The notes under the pieces were generated by a model. It worked only from the letters and a program-made list of their open reading frames with translations, made no database searches and was not told where the DNA came from. From NCBI GenBank assembly GCA_964530725.1, contig CAZGYV010000001.1:15829-79828 (forward strand): 64,000 bases of DNA, read 5' to 3'. This stretch comes from an uncultured Candidatus Saccharibacteria bacterium (lineage in GTDB: Bacteria; Patescibacteriota; Saccharimonadia; CAILAD01; CAZGYV01). Shown in pieces: positions 3,685-11,005 of this stretch; the stretch's first letter is position 1; the number at the start of each line of letters is the position of its first letter. A program made the translations under genes and the position numbers.

Positions 3685-3867
3685 AGGGCTCCTTTCACTT
3701 GAAGGATCGTCATTCACCGCGGATGCGGCAAATGTGTTCATTGCGCGAACCTGTAGATATTAGCACAACTATTGCTTTTTATCAAGGTTTGTGGTGTGAT
3801 TTCGTTTATTCTTCTTAGGACAATTGGCCGGGAGAAAATGCTCGAGGGCGCTGCTTGTTCCGGCATG

Positions 3868-3898
3868 AAAAAACCCGAGACTTAGACTCGGGTTTTTT
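3868..3898. terminator. bidirectional rho-independent terminator
   Basis: AAAAAACCCGAG-acttaga-CTCGGGTTTTTT: a 6-bp GC core flanked by an A-run and a T-run, so it can terminate in both directions. Confidence 0.7.
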
Positions 3899-3899
3899 C

Positions 3900-3922
3900 A
3901 TGGTGAACGTGGTTGAATCGAA
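3900..3922 (-). other. degenerate tRNA 3'-end-like remnant (candidate left attachment site)
   Basis: ATGGTGAACGTGGTTGAATCGAA compared with the tRNA-Glu 3' end ATGGTGATCCCACGGGGAATCGAA (10930-10953). The shared parts are ATGGTGA (ACCA end) and GAATCGAA (T-loop). The stems do not match and there is no cloverleaf. Confidence 0.3.
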
Positions 3923-4081
3923 TTGGAACGATATCCTTATGGAGTTCAGGCGACTCCATCACCTTATCAGGGGATTATCTCTGGCATAATCCATTCGCTA
4001 CGGTGATAGAACTAGTTTATGCTTGACACATAATGCTAATGCTTTTGTTATAGGCTTCTGAACCCTATAATACAGTGTAAT

Positions 4082-7000
4082 ATGTCTACATTACATAAAA
4101 GAGTATGGGGTAAAATCAAAAGCTACTTTGTAAGGGATGAAGCCGAGAAGCAAACACACCCCCTAAAGTCTCTCAGGCCAGCAAAGAATATTGATGGTCA
4201 CTCCGCTTATGTTGACGACATCGCTGAAGCGGTTGCAAATGATGACATTCTGAATATAGCCCTTACTGGCAGCTACGGTTCTGGTAAAAGTAGTATCCTC
4301 AGAGTCTTCAAGGATTCAACAAAGAAGAATAAAGTAGTCCAAATATCGTTCTCAAGCCTAGGGGCGAATATACAGGGTTATATCAATAAGTCTGAAGATG
4401 ATGAACACGAGAAGCTAAACAATCTCACAAACCTAATCCAAAAAGAGATAGTCAAACAGATACTCTTCAAGGAAAAGTACAAGAATATACCGTATTCAAA
4501 GTACAAGAGAGTCTCCAGCCCACGCTTGCCCCTAGTTTTTCTTAACGCATCATTAATATCTATAGTTCTGTTGGCCGTATCATTCGCAAACGGGTGGCTG
4601 GCTCAATTGTTTAAAGTTGCAGCCATTTCGGATTTCTGGTGGCAGGTAGCACTCTGTGCAGACCTATTCATTATCAGTACCTCGCTTATTGCTATCTTCG
4701 TGCTTACGCTATCTGGCAAAATACGGATAGATAAAATTGGTGCATCTTCAATATCATTATCACTCTCGGGAAGTGCAAGTTATTTTGACGAATACTTAGA
4801 TGAGATTATCTACTTCTTTGAAGCTGGACGATACAACGTGGTTATCTTTGAAGATATTGATAGGTTTGAGAGCCTTTATATTTTCGAGACCCTTCGACAG
4901 CTCAACACCATTCTGAATAACTCAGAGCAGATAAAACAACCCGTGACTTTCATCTACGCAATTAAAGACAGTATTTTCGCCAAAGAAGTTGTTGATGCTA
5001 AGAACGACCACAAAGAGCGAAGTGCAAACAGAACCAAGTTCTTTGACCTCATCATTCCTGTAGTTCCTTTCATTACTAATGTGAACTCACAAGACCACAT
5101 ACTTCAGGTTTTTGATAGCGAGTACCGAGACATCATCAGAGAGCCAGCCTCAGTAGTGGCAAAGCATATTACTGATATGCGTCTTGTGGTTAACATCTAT
5201 AACGAGTTTCTAATATTCAAGGATAAAGTTGTACTCCCCGACTCAGGCTTATCTCTGGATAAGTTATTTGCAGTTGTTGCTTACAAAAACTGGAATCTGG
5301 ATGAGTTTGAAAAAGTTAAAGATGGTGATAGTTCAATCGATAAGGTTATTGCTGCACACAGCAAATATGTTGACGATAGAATACGTACCATTAACTCTGA
5401 GATACGAAGCAAAGAAAGTGCCCTAAAGACTATCAATGCCATTGCTGAACGGTCACAGAGCTTAGGTAAGGTTCTTACCGACTATATAGCCGATGTATTG
5501 CGACAGGTGCAAGGTTCTGCTCAGTCCTATAGCCTTAACAGCACTTCTTATGACTTAGAAGATTTCACAACCGAAGATTTTTGGAGCGATATCATCAAAG
5601 GGGGTGAGACCAGTACTCTTATTGTCACCTATCGAGCATCAACTGGCTACACACAAAACCTTACACTGACGGCAGCCGACATCAGTAGTATTTGTAGCGA
5701 CAGCCTTGATAAAACCCAGTGGGATACAAAAGCAGCAGAAGCTATTGAAGACGAAATAGGAGTACTACGAGCCGAAGCTAATAAACTCCCATACCAAAGT
5801 ATCAAGGAACTCATTCAGGAATCACCAGAGTTTCTCGCTAAATTAAAGGAGCTCGATGGCGGTAAGGTTGTTGCTGACGAGGTAGGATGGCAACTCATTA
5901 AGGCTGGCTATATCGATACCGAATTCGTACACTACACCTCGCTATACTACAGCACCAGCATGAGCCTCAAAGCTCGTAGCTTCTTGCTAAATAATGTCCG
6001 ACTGAACAAACAGTCTTTGCATCACAAGTTTGAAAACGATGATGACATACAAGCACTTCTAGAAAAAATGGGCAGTACCTATCTTAATGATAAGAGCATG
6101 TACAACATCTCAATAGTTGATTACTTGCTCAGGAAGGATGACTCAAGAGTAGATAAGATAATAGCTAACTTGGCAGGCGGTGACGCTGACGACCTTCAAT
6201 TTATCAATGCATATGTGAAGGAGGGTTCTGAAGTAACCAAGTTTATCCAACAGCTTGCTGCACGATGGGATGGAATCTTTACGTATATTACAGGTGATAA
6301 CGAAATGGATGATAAAAAGAAGGGTCGTTTCATTAGCCTTGCATTAACTGCTGGTTCTGAGAGTATCAAGTATAAAACCAATCCATCCGTTAAAGGTTTT
6401 ATTGAGGCCAATAAAACAAACGTCCAGATACTTACAAACGATAACCAAGATAGCTCAGCCGTTGATGATGCTTGCCGATTGCTCATGCAGTTTGGAATTG
6501 AATTCGATACTCTTGATAATCTGAACGAGCAAGCAAAGGAAGCCGTAAAAGATTATGGTCTCTATACGGTCAATGAGCAGAACATGACATCTATCCTTGG
6601 AAGTCCAAGAGTGCCTTTGGATACAATCAAACGCACAAATGAATATGTCTACTCTCACTTGCTAGGGCATCTTGGTGAGTACGCAGACCTATTCCAGAAT
6701 CGAGCAGGCTCAGAATATGCACTTGCAGGCGAAGACGGATTTGAAGCAGTAATTGATGAGGTGTCAAAGATTTCGATGGATGACTTAGGATTAATTCTGG
6801 CTAATGCTGACCTGTCGAACTGTATCGTTCAAGATATTAATAAACTTGGTTCAGACACATGGCCTCTACTGGTTGAGAATGTCATTCTGTCCAACACTCT
6901 AAGTAACGTTCTGACATACTTTGAGCTGTCACATGCCGATGACAAGACAGTAATCAATGACCTGCTGGCTACATACCTTACTGAGGCTGAAACGGTTGTA

Positions 7001-7753
7001 CTTGATAAAGACTTTGCGGAGTATACTGCAGAAAATGTAAAGACCTTTGTTTTGGCCGTAGTAAATAGTTCAAAAATCGATGTGGAGACCACGGTTAATA
7101 TTGTCCATGATTGCTACACCGAAGACTACATTGACATATCAGATATTAAACCCCAAAACGGTAGCCTCTACGGTGCGTTGCTATCAAAGGACTGCATCGA
7201 AGATACGCAGGCGAACTTCGAGGCAATTAGAAACCTTTCTTGGGAAACGAAAAGCTCATACATAGCAAACTCCAAGAAGTTCTTAGAGTACATTGCAGCC
7301 CTCGCTCTCACTACGGACGAGCTAAACTCTATTGCTGAAGACGGCTCAATTCCTGATGCCGTTAACGAGTATATAGTCGATAACATCGTTGCTTATTCTG
7401 CTGAGTTATCTATCATGTCAGCTGCACACTTTGCCGAGTTTGCATTACGTAAGTCGAAGGTACTCAGTGCTGATTCACTTAAGGTTATTCTTGACGGAGC
7501 GGATAAGGAAACTAGCATTAAGCTCATAGGTCTAGCTTTAAATAATCTCGACTTTTCAAATATGCTCACACTCATGCCAGTTGTTGGTGGAGAGTATAAG
7601 AAGCTATCCGAGAAAAACAAACGACCATTATTTGAGAATACCGACTACAACTTAAACCTCATTGCCCGACTTAAAGAACTGGGCTTGGTGAGTAGTTATG
7701 AATTAAAAGATAATGAAACAAAAATAAAAGTAGTTATGAAGTCACGATGGTAG
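4082..7753 (+). CDS. KAP-family-like P-loop NTPase with transmembrane insert (1223 aa; YobI-like)
   Basis: Walker A LTGSYGSGKSS and Walker B-like VVIFEDIDRF are separated by two long hydrophobic helices (LVFLNASLISIVLLAVSFANGWLAQLF and WWQVALCADLFIISTSLIAIFVLTL). About 900 aa of unassigned, largely helical-looking sequence follows. Confidence 0.7.
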   Translation: MSTLHKRVWGKIKSYFVRDEAEKQTHPLKSLRPAKNIDGHSAYVDDIAEAVANDDILNIALTGSYGSGKSSILRVFKDSTKKNKVVQISFSSLGANIQGYINKSEDDEHEKLNNLTNLIQKEIVKQILFKEKYKNIPYSKYKRVSSPRLPLVFLNASLISIVLLAVSFANGWLAQLFKVAAISDFWWQVALCADLFIISTSLIAIFVLTLSGKIRIDKIGASSISLSLSGSASYFDEYLDEIIYFFEAGRYNVVIFEDIDRFESLYIFETLRQLNTILNNSEQIKQPVTFIYAIKDSIFAKEVVDAKNDHKERSANRTKFFDLIIPVVPFITNVNSQDHILQVFDSEYRDIIREPASVVAKHITDMRLVVNIYNEFLIFKDKVVLPDSGLSLDKLFAVVAYKNWNLDEFEKVKDGDSSIDKVIAAHSKYVDDRIRTINSEIRSKESALKTINAIAERSQSLGKVLTDYIADVLRQVQGSAQSYSLNSTSYDLEDFTTEDFWSDIIKGGETSTLIVTYRASTGYTQNLTLTAADISSICSDSLDKTQWDTKAAEAIEDEIGVLRAEANKLPYQSIKELIQESPEFLAKLKELDGGKVVADEVGWQLIKAGYIDTEFVHYTSLYYSTSMSLKARSFLLNNVRLNKQSLHHKFENDDDIQALLEKMGSTYLNDKSMYNISIVDYLLRKDDSRVDKIIANLAGGDADDLQFINAYVKEGSEVTKFIQQLAARWDGIFTYITGDNEMDDKKKGRFISLALTAGSESIKYKTNPSVKGFIEANKTNVQILTNDNQDSSAVDDACRLLMQFGIEFDTLDNLNEQAKEAVKDYGLYTVNEQNMTSILGSPRVPLDTIKRTNEYVYSHLLGHLGEYADLFQNRAGSEYALAGEDGFEAVIDEVSKISMDDLGLILANADLSNCIVQDINKLGSDTWPLLVENVILSNTLSNVLTYFELSHADDKTVINDLLATYLTEAETVVLDKDFAEYTAENVKTFVLAVVNSSKIDVETTVNIVHDCYTEDYIDISDIKPQNGSLYGALLSKDCIEDTQANFEAIRNLSWETKSSYIANSKKFLEYIAALALTTDELNSIAEDGSIPDAVNEYIVDNIVAYSAELSIMSAAHFAEFALRKSKVLSADSLKVILDGADKETSIKLIGLALNNLDFSNMLTLMPVVGGEYKKLSEKNKRPLFENTDYNLNLIARLKELGLVSSYELKDNETKIKVVMKSRW

Positions 7754-7919: not shown

Positions 7920-8414
7920 TTAGTAGCTTTTAGGAATAGCCTTACAAACTTCATCAAGAAGCTCATCAGGACTCATGTTGAGGTTTTGGTTTAAGTCTTT
8001 AAACTCCATAGTTATCATCACATAGACCATAGTCTGGAAGTTATTTGGGTGTTCTAGCTTCTCTGCAACTTGGGTTGTATATGCAGTTAGTCGTAATAGT
8101 TCGTCTGGCTTTTTGAATCCAGTTCTTGCAGAGACTGTCATAAGTCGCAACTCTTCCTTACTGGCATTAGGATTCTGGCGTTTATGCATGTCATACATCT
8201 TCTTTTGCGTCTTGGCTATTGAAACAGGACTACCTGCTTTTTTGAATAGTCCACCAATCCACTTGAAGATAGCAACAACCCAAAAGAACAGACCAAACCA
8301 TACAAGGATACCCGCAAACATTGAGGGTAGTAAATGGAATATACTAGGCAGCATTAAAGCTAACCCGATAAGGAACAGTTGATAAGGCTTAATACTTTTT
8401 CTTTGCTTCGACAT
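7920..8414 (-). CDS. hypothetical two-TM membrane protein (164 aa)
   Basis: Start MSKQRKSIKPYQ is preceded by an SD (ttAAGGAGaaaaacATG). Hydrophobic hairpin LFLIGLALMLPSIFHLL / FAGILVWFGLFFWVVAIF, followed by a soluble C-terminal domain. The 196-aa track ORF has an unsupported N-terminal extension. Confidence 0.55.
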   Translation of the reverse strand: MSKQRKSIKPYQLFLIGLALMLPSIFHLLPSMFAGILVWFGLFFWVVAIFKWIGGLFKKAGSPVSIAKTQKKMYDMHKRQNPNASKEELRLMTVSARTGFKKPDELLRLTAYTTQVAEKLEHPNNFQTMVYVMITMEFKDLNQNLNMSPDELLDEVCKAIPKSY

Positions 8415-8575
8415 GTTTTTCTCCTTAAAAATAAAAACGACACCACGCTTGGTGTCTAAACCAGTAACAGAGTTTTTAAGCCCGATTACTTCGCATGGTG
8501 CCGTTTTCAAGGCTTAAAACCACGCAAAATTACTTGCGGTACTCTATAACTGGTTTAGACTATTTCATTATATAA
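8415..8575 (-). promoter_or_regulatory. structured 5' leader: long closing stem, two internal hairpins, then a terminator-like hairpin abutting the SD
   Basis: Arms 8454-8473 and 8541-8560 pair 18/20. Inner stems are 8474-8482/8511-8519 (9 bp) and 8523-8527/8534-8538 (5 bp). Hairpin GACACCA-cgct-TGGTGTC (8439-8456) is followed on the minus strand by GTTTTTATTTTT and then AAGGAG-ATG. Confidence 0.45.
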
Positions 8576-8856
8576 CAAAAACACCCCCATGTTGCTCAAA
8601 TCACCCCTGAGCCCAAACGATATTTTGCGTTTAAAATCAAAAGTTGATGTTATGCCCATCTCGTAGATAAAAGTGCGTGTTTTGACGGTTTATTTACAGT
8701 ATGTTGGTCGATTATTTTGCTTCCAAAATTAAAAGATGAGCATAAGTCCACCTCACAAATATGAGCGAAAAAAATGAAGCAAGTTCAGCGGTATTTCCGA
8801 CCACTATGGAGTTTTTGGTTATCCACAGACACTTGTCAAAATAAACATAAAAGGTA

Positions 8857-8885
8857 TTGACTTTTTGGGCAAAGTTTGATATAAT
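8857..8885 (+). promoter_or_regulatory. near-consensus sigma70-type promoter
   Basis: TTGACT (8857-8862), a 17-nt spacer, then TATAAT (8880-8885). Confidence 0.6.
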
Positions 8886-8891
8886 ACCAAC

Positions 8892-9128
8892 AGTTAATGA
8901 CGTGGTACACATGTTAAATCTCTTAGCTAAATCATACACAGAACCGACACGGCGTGGTGTTTAGCTAGTTATTTGATAGTCCTATAGTCACTACTCTTGT
9001 TGGAAGCAATAAAGAGAGAGCATCAGAGTTTCGCCTTCGTGAAAATATGCCCATTCTCCTACGTTGTCCTACTAAATAATTAGTAAGATAACAGGCTGAT
9101 TTAGTACGCCCTCGGACGGGTGTTTTTT
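8892..9128 (+). ncRNA. candidate ~235-nt non-coding transcript (or leader of the recombinase operon)
   Basis: Runs from the consensus promoter at 8857-8885 to a weak terminator: CGCCC-tcggac-GGGTG plus TTTTTT (9107-9128). Only 6-17-codon ORFs lie inside. It contains several hairpins, e.g. CTACTAAataaTTAGTAAG. Confidence 0.35.
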
Positions 9129-9154
9129 ATATCTGCCAAAGAATAAGGGTTAAC

Positions 9155-9376
9155 ATGCCACGACAAAGAACATGGAGCGGTCAGATGCTCACAATATCAG
9201 ATAAACCTATCATTACCACAGGAGAAGCTCGCAAGATACTAGGCAAGGGTTACGAAGAGCTTTCAGATGAACACCTAATGGGAGTAATTGTTTCACTTTC
9301 TAAGATAGCAGACTATTTCCTGACTAGGATTAGTGTTCCAGAAAACTATAAGGTATGTGGTAAAATGGGGATATGA
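9155..9376 (+). CDS. small protein (73 aa), possible HTH/recombination directionality factor
   Basis: ATGA-coupled to the recombinase start. The segment ITTGEARKILGKGYEELSD looks like a helix-turn-helix. I recognise no family. Confidence 0.4.
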   Translation: MPRQRTWSGQMLTISDKPIITTGEARKILGKGYEELSDEHLMGVIVSLSKIADYFLTRISVPENYKVCGKMGI

Positions 9377-10971
9377 ATACGATGGATAAAAAAGAGCCAA
9401 TCAAAGTTTATGGTTATAAGCGTGTGTCTACTGAGGAGCAAGTTGATGGGATGTCTTTACATACTCAAGAGCTTGCAATTCAAGCCTACGCAGAGCAGCA
9501 CAATCTTGAGGTGGTGCATATCTTTCATGACGATGGAATATCCGCCAAAACAGCCAAGCGCCCGCAACTTCAAGAGATGCTCGCAAAACTCACAGCCAAA
9601 GATAACGAGGTGCGTGGTGTAGTTGTTTACAATCTCAGTCGTATCTCTCGTGATTTAGAGTCATACAGTCGTGATATAGGCTATCATCTTTCGGCAAAAG
9701 GCGTTCGTCTGTACTCTACAGTTGAAAACATTGACGATACACCAGAGGGTCGTTTGATGCGTAATATTGCACTCTCTATCCACCAGTACGATAACGATAC
9801 AAAAAGTCGAACAGTTAAAGACAATATGAAACAAGTTGCTCTTGAGGGTTGGTGGCAAGGCAATATCCCCTACGGATATAGCCGTGTTAAAGTACCGATT
9901 GGCATTAAGGACAAAGACGGTAAAACTAAGGAGCGTCTCACTCTCGAACCTGATAGCAATAACGACTTGAGCGACAAGATGCGTATGATGCTAGAGCGGT
10001 TCAGTGAGGGTGATTTGAAACAGTCCGAGCTTACTGATTATGCTGAGAGTATCGGCCTATACAGCCCAAAGGGTGAACGTTTTGCACCTCAGTCAATGAA
10101 TAACATTCTAAGAAATATTACCTATGCGGGCTTTGTGTGTAATAAGATGACAGACTTTGAACCTGTAAAGGCTAAACACGTAGGTCTTATCTCGCTTGAG
10201 ACATATTTACGTAATCAGGCTGTTCTTGATGGTCGTAAGCCTGATGAGGCGATGCCTCGCTTTACTGCTAGCTACCCTCTCAAGCACTCTCTGTTATGTA
10301 TTAACTGTCATAAACCCTTAACAGGTAGTGCACCTACTGGAGGTTCTGGTAAGAGCTCACCTCGCTATCACTGCACAAGATGTACGGGTACTGGCTCAAA
10401 AGGTCTTGATAGAACGAATGAGCTATTTGAAGCATTCTTAAACGATGTTACGCCTACAGATAAGATGATTAAGCTCTTTGATGTGATTGTACGCCGTATC
10501 GCCAAAGACAAGCTCTCAAACGTGAATAAGGCTATCAGCGATGTTAGAGACGATATGACCAAGATAGACACTGATATGCAGAAAGCACTTCAGTCTATGC
10601 TCGATGGCGATATCAGTAAGCAAGAGAAAGAAGACTACCAGTCGTCATTACGTATTAAGCGACTCAACCTAGAGGACGAACTTAATAAGCTACGAGACAT
10701 ACAGAGCCTCAATGAGTCTACTATTACCTATGTTTGTAACTTTATGGACGCTCCTGCTCGTATGTGGCAAGATGCAGACGCAGAGACAAAAGTCATCTTC
10801 CAACAGATGGTTACAGAGAACGGTATTGTATTCGACCTCAAGAACGAAAAGTTTGGAACGGACGGTTTGAGTATGTTTTACAGATTGAAAGACAACAAAA
10901 AAGACCCATCAAAGGCTGATGAGTCCCTTATGGTGATCCCACGGGGAATCGAACCCCGGTTACCAGGATGA
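9373..10971 (+). CDS. large serine recombinase (532 aa)
   Basis: Resolvase-type N-terminal domain (VYGYKRVSTEEQ with catalytic Ser; GISAKT..RPQLQEML; VVVYNLSRISRD). Recombinase domain (WQGNIPYGY). Zn-ribbon CINCH...YHCTRC. Coiled-coil C-terminal region. The last 41 nt overlap tRNA-Glu in antisense. Confidence 0.9.
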   Translation: MNTMDKKEPIKVYGYKRVSTEEQVDGMSLHTQELAIQAYAEQHNLEVVHIFHDDGISAKTAKRPQLQEMLAKLTAKDNEVRGVVVYNLSRISRDLESYSRDIGYHLSAKGVRLYSTVENIDDTPEGRLMRNIALSIHQYDNDTKSRTVKDNMKQVALEGWWQGNIPYGYSRVKVPIGIKDKDGKTKERLTLEPDSNNDLSDKMRMMLERFSEGDLKQSELTDYAESIGLYSPKGERFAPQSMNNILRNITYAGFVCNKMTDFEPVKAKHVGLISLETYLRNQAVLDGRKPDEAMPRFTASYPLKHSLLCINCHKPLTGSAPTGGSGKSSPRYHCTRCTGTGSKGLDRTNELFEAFLNDVTPTDKMIKLFDVIVRRIAKDKLSNVNKAISDVRDDMTKIDTDMQKALQSMLDGDISKQEKEDYQSSLRIKRLNLEDELNKLRDIQSLNESTITYVCNFMDAPARMWQDADAETKVIFQQMVTENGIVFDLKNEKFGTDGLSMFYRLKDNKKDPSKADESLMVIPRGIEPRLPG

Positions 10972-11005
10972 GAACCTGGCGTCCTAACCGCTAGACGATG
11001 GGACC
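10931..11005 (-). tRNA. tRNA-Glu (anticodon CUC), 75 nt with encoded CCA
   Basis: Manual cloverleaf: acceptor GGTCCCA/TGGGATC, D-arm GTCT-AGCGGTTA-GGAC, anticodon arm CCAGG-TTCTCAT-CCTGG, T-arm CGGGG-TTCGATT-CCCCG, discriminator A, then CCA. Confidence 0.9.

Follow-up and report, generated by a model that had tools for sequence, protein, structure and literature searches.

What is transcribed from the DNA between a near-consensus promoter and a recombinase operon, and what does the product do? This question is raised by a locus in a stretch of 64,000 nt of Saccharibacteria (TM7) DNA, hereafter called the window, to which all positions refer unless another locus is named. The ~235 nt behind the promoter had been described in the original prediction as an ORF-less transcript, either an sRNA of its own (for instance, an antitoxin-like RNA) or an attenuating leader of the recombinase operon. 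In our analysis, there is an even chance that the region is a structured 5′ leader, read from the plus strand, which acts as an attenuator of an operon composed of a small ORF and a large serine recombinase (LSR) gene.

The recombinase island and its leader types

The leader is hosted by a ~7-kb low-GC island at a tRNA-Glu gene of the Saccharibacteria genome. The right end of the island is the tRNA-Glu(CTC) gene itself (10931-11005, minus strand), while the left end (~3900-3925) carries a degenerate copy of the 3′ part of this tRNA. The probable borders are located at 3900-3925 and 10929-10953, and between them the G+C content falls from ~0.50 outside the island to ~0.40. The tRNA-Glu 3′ copy at the left border (ATGGTGAACGTGGTTGAATCGAA) adjoins a bidirectional-looking terminator (3864-3902), and its likeness to the tRNA is modest, being reached by 14 out of 300 shuffles. 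The first island gene in order encodes a YobI-like P-loop NTPase (4082-7753) and is followed by a gene for a 164-aa membrane protein (7920-8414, minus strand). An intergenic region of 740 nt separates the latter gene from a 73-aa ORF (9155-9376, plus strand), which is the first gene of the recombinase operon and is preceded by the SD sequence AAGGG (9145-9149, plus strand).

The second gene of the operon (9373-10971, plus strand) encodes an LSR of 532 aa with a Resolvase domain (PF00239, 2.7e-27) and a Recombinase domain (PF07508, 1.3e-06). The stop codon of the 73-aa ORF and the start codon of the recombinase gene overlap (ATGA, 9373-9376), so both genes are coupled in translation. The stop codon of the recombinase gene lies inside the tRNA-Glu gene, with the C-terminus of the protein (...PRGIEPRLPG) ending within this opposite-strand gene (10931-10971). 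The tRNA overlaps the 3′ end of the recombinase gene likewise in all four relatives checked (L003, L005, L019, and L037). Because this overlap recurs, the attachment site lies in the tRNA and the last recombinase codons are tRNA-encoded.

The start codon and the SD of the 73-aa ORF are conserved in the relatives. The encoded protein belongs to a family of 36 clusters and adjoins an LSR in every locus fetched. It has no family in Pfam, and its AlphaFold2 model (medium confidence, pLDDT 72.6) has no Foldseek neighbor in the PDB with an E-value below 3.7. The protein was thus found in no known Xis/RDF family or fold, and the earlier label ‘RDF’ is a guess since there is neither a family nor a fold match.

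Related loci were found through recombinase scans, with the 73-aa protein as a search query, and via look-ups of the encoding contigs, which gathered 21 distinct upstream regions. The nearest related loci come from Saccharibacteria MAGs. Every locus encodes the small ORF followed by the recombinase, and the module of leader, small ORF, and recombinase is the only part common to all island variants. The region 8415-9380 has no DNA match in phage and plasmid collections, the type A box (see below for the leader types) has no exact match in phage, plasmid, or viral collections, and viral contigs yielded distant recombinases only. No transfer or replication gene is recognizable in the island. The cargo of the relatives (L003, L004, L032, L033, and L036) is variable and defense-like, and comprises a methylase-like gene, a 1294-aa protein, GmrSD with HEPN, a TIR-like protein with DUF4411 and Peptidase_M78, and others, the cargo in the window being the YobI-like P-loop NTPase. 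The island family looks like small recombinase-mobilized defense islands of Saccharibacteria.

The leaders fall into types A to D. Type A leaders (~263 nt) are found in the window and in loci L038, L001, L007, L039, L029, L040, and L042. Type B leaders (~193 nt; L003, L004, L008, and L009) have the same promoter as type A. Leaders of types C and D are preceded by an ORF of ~230 aa in place of the consensus promoter. This ORF is located directly 5′ of the leader on the same strand (L002, 4860-5567; L005, 4849-5547; L019, 3122-3814; L044, 399-1094) and has no family in Pfam. Its C-terminus looks, by eye, like a helix-turn-helix, and the ORF may encode a regulator that is replaced by a constitutive promoter in the other types. 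Nhmmer profiles of types A and B match neither each other nor types C and D. Apart from short blocks, alignment across all types is confined to the last ~100 nt, which have in common an AAUAA loop box, a C-rich/G-rich hairpin, a U-rich tract, and the SD. Each type has a 5′ part of its own. Covariation counts were kept within a type, since MAFFT aligned the terminal stem in different registers among the types.

Sequence similarity between islands is higher in the leader than in the coding DNA next to it. The window and L040 are 84% identical in the leader, 78% in the small ORF, and 76% in the recombinase. The corresponding values are 89, 71, and 70% for L003 and L004, and 92, 77, and 69% for L003 and L009. 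The islands are mosaic (the window and L001 share 57% identity upstream of the promoter and 96% in the recombinase), so recombination could inflate the apparent conservation of the leader. The pattern is consistent across pairs and therefore points to purifying selection on the leader. In most cases, the small ORF has been inherited along with the leader.

Promoter and fold of the leader RNA

The promoter is of the sigma-70 type (8857-8885, plus strand) and consists of a -35 box TTGACT (8857-8862), a spacer of 17 nt, and a -10 box TATAAT (8880-8885), which is extended by a TG (TGATATAAT, 8877-8885, plus strand). It scores 11 out of 12 hexamer matches, plus the TG. Seven sites with 11 out of 12 matches occur on both strands of the 64-kb window, versus 1.06 expected from block shuffles, and the site at 8857-8885 is the only one of them with the TG (0.07 expected). 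To call it the best promoter match in the window, as had been done, is therefore fair. GGTATTGACTTTT and GTTTGATATAAT are unchanged in all 12 loci of types A and B, the extended -10 is likewise invariant, and the spacer always measures 17 nt; eight spacer positions and both flanks vary. On comparative sequence evidence, the promoter is real and has been kept by selection in evolution. Transcription is predicted to start at ~8892-8893, which gives a leader of ~263 nt (from ~8892 to the ATG at 9155).

Several relatives contain a second promoter-like site ~60 nt upstream of the main one, which is absent from the window. This site (TTGACA, 19 nt, TATAAC/TATAAT) overlaps an inverted repeat, TTGTTGT...ACAACA, and is located at ~5000-5045 in L001, ~3410-3450 in L007, and ~5467-5505 in L003; it is also present in L039.

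The ~235 nt following the promoter are indeed ORF-less, as first described. There is no ORF of at least 20 aa with a plausible start in 8892-9128, and the longer ORFs of 28 aa (8997-9083, plus strand) and 29 aa (8965-9054, minus strand) are broken in homologs by frameshifting indels of 1-2 nt. The type A copies (eight independent copies from seven different samples) are separated by such 1-2-nt indels, for example in alignment columns 155-156, which rules out that the leader is coding. No conserved small ORF was found on either strand of the leader region. We noted a tiny ORF (9047-9079, plus strand) encoding MPILLRCPTK (ATG CCC ATT CTC CTA CGT TGT CCT ACT AAA TAA), which is open over 10-17 codons, as MPILL(R/S/C)CP, in all type A copies. 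With no SD in front of it and its AUG inside a predicted helix, this ORF has probably been kept as a side effect of the conserved sequence.

RNAalifold predicts 75 pairs for the type A copies, and in the control count 99.2% of the cells of the predicted pairs do pair. Counted in 7-8 related type A sequences only, nine pairs have changed on both sides, versus 3.4 ± 1.4 in shuffles (none out of 500 reaches nine) and 0-4 when the pairing partners are slid. The homologs thus show compensatory changes above the controls. G-U pairs occur at at least 10 positions and fit the plus strand only, since an RNA from the opposite strand would have C-A mismatches there. The fold z-score is -2.66 for the plus strand versus -1.58 for the minus strand. 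The transcript predicted here is a non-coding, structured, plus-strand RNA.

Covariation backs the hairpins P1, P2, and P6 and an extended terminator hairpin (see the next section). P1 (helix 1; 8898-8916, plus strand) is a 7-bp hairpin near the 5′ end, TGACGTG-gtaca-CATGTTA, with three out of seven pairs changed on both sides. Its sequence is different in L029 and L040 with the pairing retained, and it may protect the 5′ end of the RNA. P2 (8924-8967, plus strand) is a long hairpin, TAGCTAAAT ... GTTTAGCTA, with a conserved internal AAATCATACACA strand. Its pair 42:82 occurs as GC, GU, or AU, and the block AAATCATA(T)ACA is found in type C leaders too. The central domain with the predicted hairpins P3-P5 (8974-9058, plus strand) is nearly invariant among the aligned type A copies. 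Because the central helices 6-10 are hardly variable, they provide no evidence for or against pairing. P6 (helix 11; 9063-9092, plus strand), GTTGTC-CTACTAA...TTAGTAAG-GATAAC, carries an AAUAA loop box, and its pair 190:203 switches between GC and AU. The CCTGCTAA...TAGC sequence and the AAUAA box of P6 recur in types C and D.

The leader belongs to no known RNA family in the Rfam/Infernal comparison that had been suggested, even under permissive settings. At the gathering threshold, Rfam 15 finds two tRNAs only in the whole window, and with E-values up to 10 the region 8300-9400 gives one sub-threshold snoRNA match (24.8 bits versus 42). The leaders of types B, C, and D have no match in Rfam.

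A second conserved structured leader is located at 8415-8577 on the minus strand, 5′ of the 164-aa membrane-protein gene. Its -10 box reads TATAAT, TACAAT, or TATAGT depending on the locus, and the RNA behind it measures ~145 nt, with a 20-bp helix (8454-8473 with 8541-8560) closing around additional hairpins. Immediately after this helix, a terminator (GACACCAAGCGTGGTGTC and T5, 8456-8439) precedes the SD AAGGAG and the start codon at 8414 (ATG). The fold z-score of this divergent leader is -5.58, Rfam gives no match, and the architecture is riboswitch-like. The divergent leader is conserved in L001, L003, L038, and L039, with too little variation for covariation. A motif that the two leaders had been supposed to share (8944-8968 and 8438-8465) does not exceed chance: the alignment score is 11 versus 10.5 ± 1.7 in shuffles, 197 out of 500 of which reach it, and the T that aids the claimed motif (TGGTGT) is a C in seven out of eight type A copies. 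The region between the divergent promoters (8580-8800) is ~80% conserved with L001 and L003, with no evident ORF or structure found in it; L001 contains an inserted 151-aa ORF at the equivalent place.

The terminator-like hairpin and expression of the operon

The terminator core (9106-9123, plus strand) has the sequence ACGCCC-tcggac-GGGTGT and is followed by a U-tract (TTTTTT, 9124-9129), so that a terminator-like hairpin with six T residues (9106-9129) does precede the 73-aa ORF, as had been noted. It is close to this ORF, as also noted, with a corrected distance: the ORF begins 31 nt past the hairpin and 25 nt past the T-run instead of 27 nt behind the terminator. The description as a weak terminator is inaccurate, since its stem (-8.2 kcal/mol) ranks sixth among the 22 hairpin-plus-T-run sites in the window. 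An outer helix (GGCTGA.../...TCTGCC) around the core extends the hairpin to 9094-9137 (plus strand). This extended terminator hairpin (helix 12) contains three compensatory pairs, including those of 9094-9096 with 9135-9137. These outer pairs have become A-U pairs in the lineage of L029 and L040, and U-G pairs in L039. Because they lie beyond the U-tract, the outer pairs can form solely in read-through RNA, and their compensatory changes therefore argue for selection on the read-through RNA. The stretch from the hairpin to the ATG is too short for a second promoter, and the operon has no promoter of its own.

A terminator-like hairpin at -31 to -37 is present in all eight type A leaders, in all three type C1 leaders, and in L036. 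More generally, a G+C hairpin ends 31-38 nt 5′ of the ATG in 15 out of 19 leaders (types A, C, and D), with arms that differ among the types (CGCCC/GGGUG, CCCUCUU/AGGAGGG, GCCCCA/UGGGGU, and ACCCU/AGGGU). Type B leaders have an AU(A/G)CCC/GGGUGU stem with an enlarged loop at the equivalent position, ~34 nt before the ATG. A strong U-run follows the hairpin in type A only; that of type C is moderate, and types B and D have none, so that termination at the equivalent hairpin is not universal. Type B leaders contain hairpin-plus-U-run structures within their first ~100 nt, and their SD is sequestered in a hairpin; from our reading of the sequences, the start codon of type C1 can be sequestered. 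No conserved alternative (antiterminator) pairing was found in the leader. Inspection of the sequence shows two possible partners for CUACUAA (9069-9075), namely its partner in P6 and UUUAGUA in the flank of the terminator, and a GGCGU/ACGCC alternative pairing is not compensated in L039; none of these pairings has covariation support.

In the attenuator that we propose, the constitutive near-consensus promoter would fire strongly, and the nascent RNA would fold into the 5′ hairpin, the conserved multi-hairpin core, and the long hairpin with its G+C core followed by U6. The majority of transcripts would stop at U6, resulting in a stable RNA of ~235 nt. A minority would be read-through transcripts, from which the 73-aa protein would be translated and then the recombinase via the ATGA coupling. 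Recombinase levels would be low or conditional because only this minority reads through. The start and the 3′ end of the transcript, as well as the efficiency of termination, are predicted from the sequence. Termination at 9124-9129 presumably takes place and is presumably partial, and the leader likely lowers the expression of the recombinase. The near-invariant core (8974-9058) would probably set or sense read-through or translation by binding some factor, and may thus be the sensor of the system. Several observations speak against an attenuator: mere attenuation would not require a nearly unchanged sequence of ~100 nt, no conserved antiterminator pairing was found, and the equivalent hairpin lacks a U-tract in types B and D.

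A comparable arrangement is known from Tn916, where a leader is located upstream of tet(M) and read-through reaches xis/int. As in Tn916-type attenuators, a promoter and a long untranslated leader with a hairpin and U-run precede a mobility operon, and recombinase expression would, according to our proposal, depend on read-through. Unlike in these attenuators, the leader contains no SD-bearing leader peptide, its conservation and structure go far beyond what simple attenuation requires, and the enzyme is an LSR in Saccharibacteria.

A consensus promoter, a 5′ hairpin, and a 3′ terminator are the classic build of an abundant stand-alone sRNA, so the ~235-nt product of termination may itself be functional. 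In the extreme case, the region would produce an abundant, trans-acting, stand-alone sRNA of ~235 nt, for example a type-specific immunity or exclusion RNA acting between islands, with the read-through into the recombinase being incidental. We consider this unlikely. Besides its typical build, such an sRNA would be in line with the nearly invariant central sequence and with the discrete types A to D, which lack an nhmmer cross-match and are highly conserved within each type; discrete, internally conserved types are the pattern of immunity and incompatibility determinants. However, the complementarity of the leader to the downstream mRNA is at chance (the longest run is 8 nt, and most shuffles have runs of at least 8 nt), no above-chance complementarity to the att regions or the divergent leader exists, and the best match in the rest of the 64-kb window has an E-value of 0.7. 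In addition, the operon has no other promoter. A leader is favored over a stand-alone sRNA because only 31 nt, including the SD, lie between the hairpin and the ATG, because the compensatory pairs extend past the U-tract, and because types B and D have the equivalent hairpin without a U-tract. The G+C hairpin also keeps its distance to the ATG in all types while its arms differ, which again favors a leader. From the two alternatives of the original prediction, the attenuating leader hence fits better, while a purely stand-alone sRNA conflicts with the covariation beyond the U-tract.

The suggested antitoxin-like role found no backing, as the leader region lacks a toxin ORF, tandem or direct repeats, and an antisense promoter. 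An RNA of a type I or III toxin-antitoxin system was rejected as well, there being neither an overlapping toxin ORF nor tandem RNA repeats.

In a further reading, the core could be a riboswitch-like or protein-binding sensor that binds a metabolite, the 73-aa protein, or the recombinase (autoregulation), and thereby toggles the terminator or the SD. The order of core, terminator, and SD would suit such a sensor, as would the primary-sequence conservation of the multi-hairpin core, which exceeds that of coding DNA, the sequestered SD in type B and start codon in type C1, and the usual co-inheritance of the leader with the small ORF. This sensor is nonetheless decidedly improbable, given that no leader type has an Rfam family, that types A, B, and C lack the common core that a shared ligand pocket would require, that no alternative pairing has covariation support, and that the invariant central helices lack covariation backing for their pairing. 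The leader resembles terminator-platform riboswitches in its conserved folded domain, intrinsic terminator, and SD, and differs from them by having no Rfam class, no core common to the leader types, and no antiterminator pairing found.

Other conceivable roles of the leader and its meaning for the islands

With a slim chance of being correct, the leader can be regarded as the type-specific RNA part of the recombinase module. It would either block incoming islands of the same type in trans (at the level of expression or recombination, as an RNA-based immunity) or bind the 73-aa protein or the recombinase and so gate excision. Such a role would explain why the leader is conserved above the recombinase gene, why it occurs in discrete types without cross-match, and why it is a member of the sole shared module. 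The CI RNA of phage P4 and the c4 RNA of phages P1 and P7 are leader-embedded immunity RNAs, and c4 is represented in Rfam. As in these systems, a constitutive promoter drives a small structured RNA encoded in the 5′ portion of the operon that this RNA would control, and discrete specificity types would be expected. Unlike the leader, for which no such complementarity was found, the P4 CI and c4 RNAs pair with repeated targets in their own transcript, and the leader does not match c4 in Rfam. Self-targeting of the c4/CI kind was rejected, as the complementary runs of 7-8 nt are not conserved across type A and fall within the shuffle range. RNAduplex runs with the leader gave loose, uninformative duplexes only.

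It is very improbable that the RNA is a partner of the recombination machinery, in which case it might serve as a guide or scaffold for site choice or synapsis by analogy with IS110 bridge RNAs. Its position directly 5′ of the recombinase gene, in the sole module common to all variants, and its high conservation would be compatible with this role. The leader shares with the IS110 bridge RNA and the IS200/IS605 omega RNA that it is a structured RNA of ~150-250 nt beside the gene of a DNA-rearranging enzyme within a mobile element. In contrast to these systems, the RNA is a 5′ UTR between a promoter and an SD, the adjacent enzyme is of the resolvase type and not of the IS110 family (DEDD/Tnp), and there is no match to the island ends as in a bridge RNA. 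Complementarity to the island ends scores 6-8 versus shuffle means of ~7, with 67-295 out of 300 shuffles reaching these scores, and all types adjoin a tRNA that is entered by the recombinase gene, yet share no guide-like segment. To our knowledge, characterized LSRs recognize their att sites by protein-DNA contacts alone, which also disfavors an RNA cofactor. The idea of a guide RNA was rejected after comparing the leader with both island ends in both orientations, all of which were at chance.

A DNA-level element of the excised island (a single-strand origin, an oriT, or a protein-binding palindrome) is scarcely credible, for although the region is hairpin-rich, orientation-specific, and highly conserved, contains a long imperfect palindrome (9094-9137), and lies in a mobile element without a recognizable transfer or replication gene, an invariant double-strand promoter is located immediately upstream, an SD and a coupled operon directly downstream, and the many G-U pairs and tolerated one-sided changes from G-C to G-U fit an RNA better.

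Saccharibacteria belong to the CPR/Patescibacteria; their genomes are tiny, and few regulators and hardly any characterized non-coding RNAs are known from them. We know of no previously described RNA-level control element for an LSR island. As a passive attenuator only, the leader would be an ordinary finding. It is a candidate new RNA motif for which the promoter and the ends are defined and which is known from eight independent copies of type A and from three more types. The recombinase with its tRNA-Glu att site is of possible practical use in Saccharibacteria genetics. The islands of this family share three things only, namely the leader, the 73-aa protein, and the LSR, and the leader is the most conserved among them. 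If the leader controls the output of the recombinase, it would give insight into how these islands stay quiet yet mobile.
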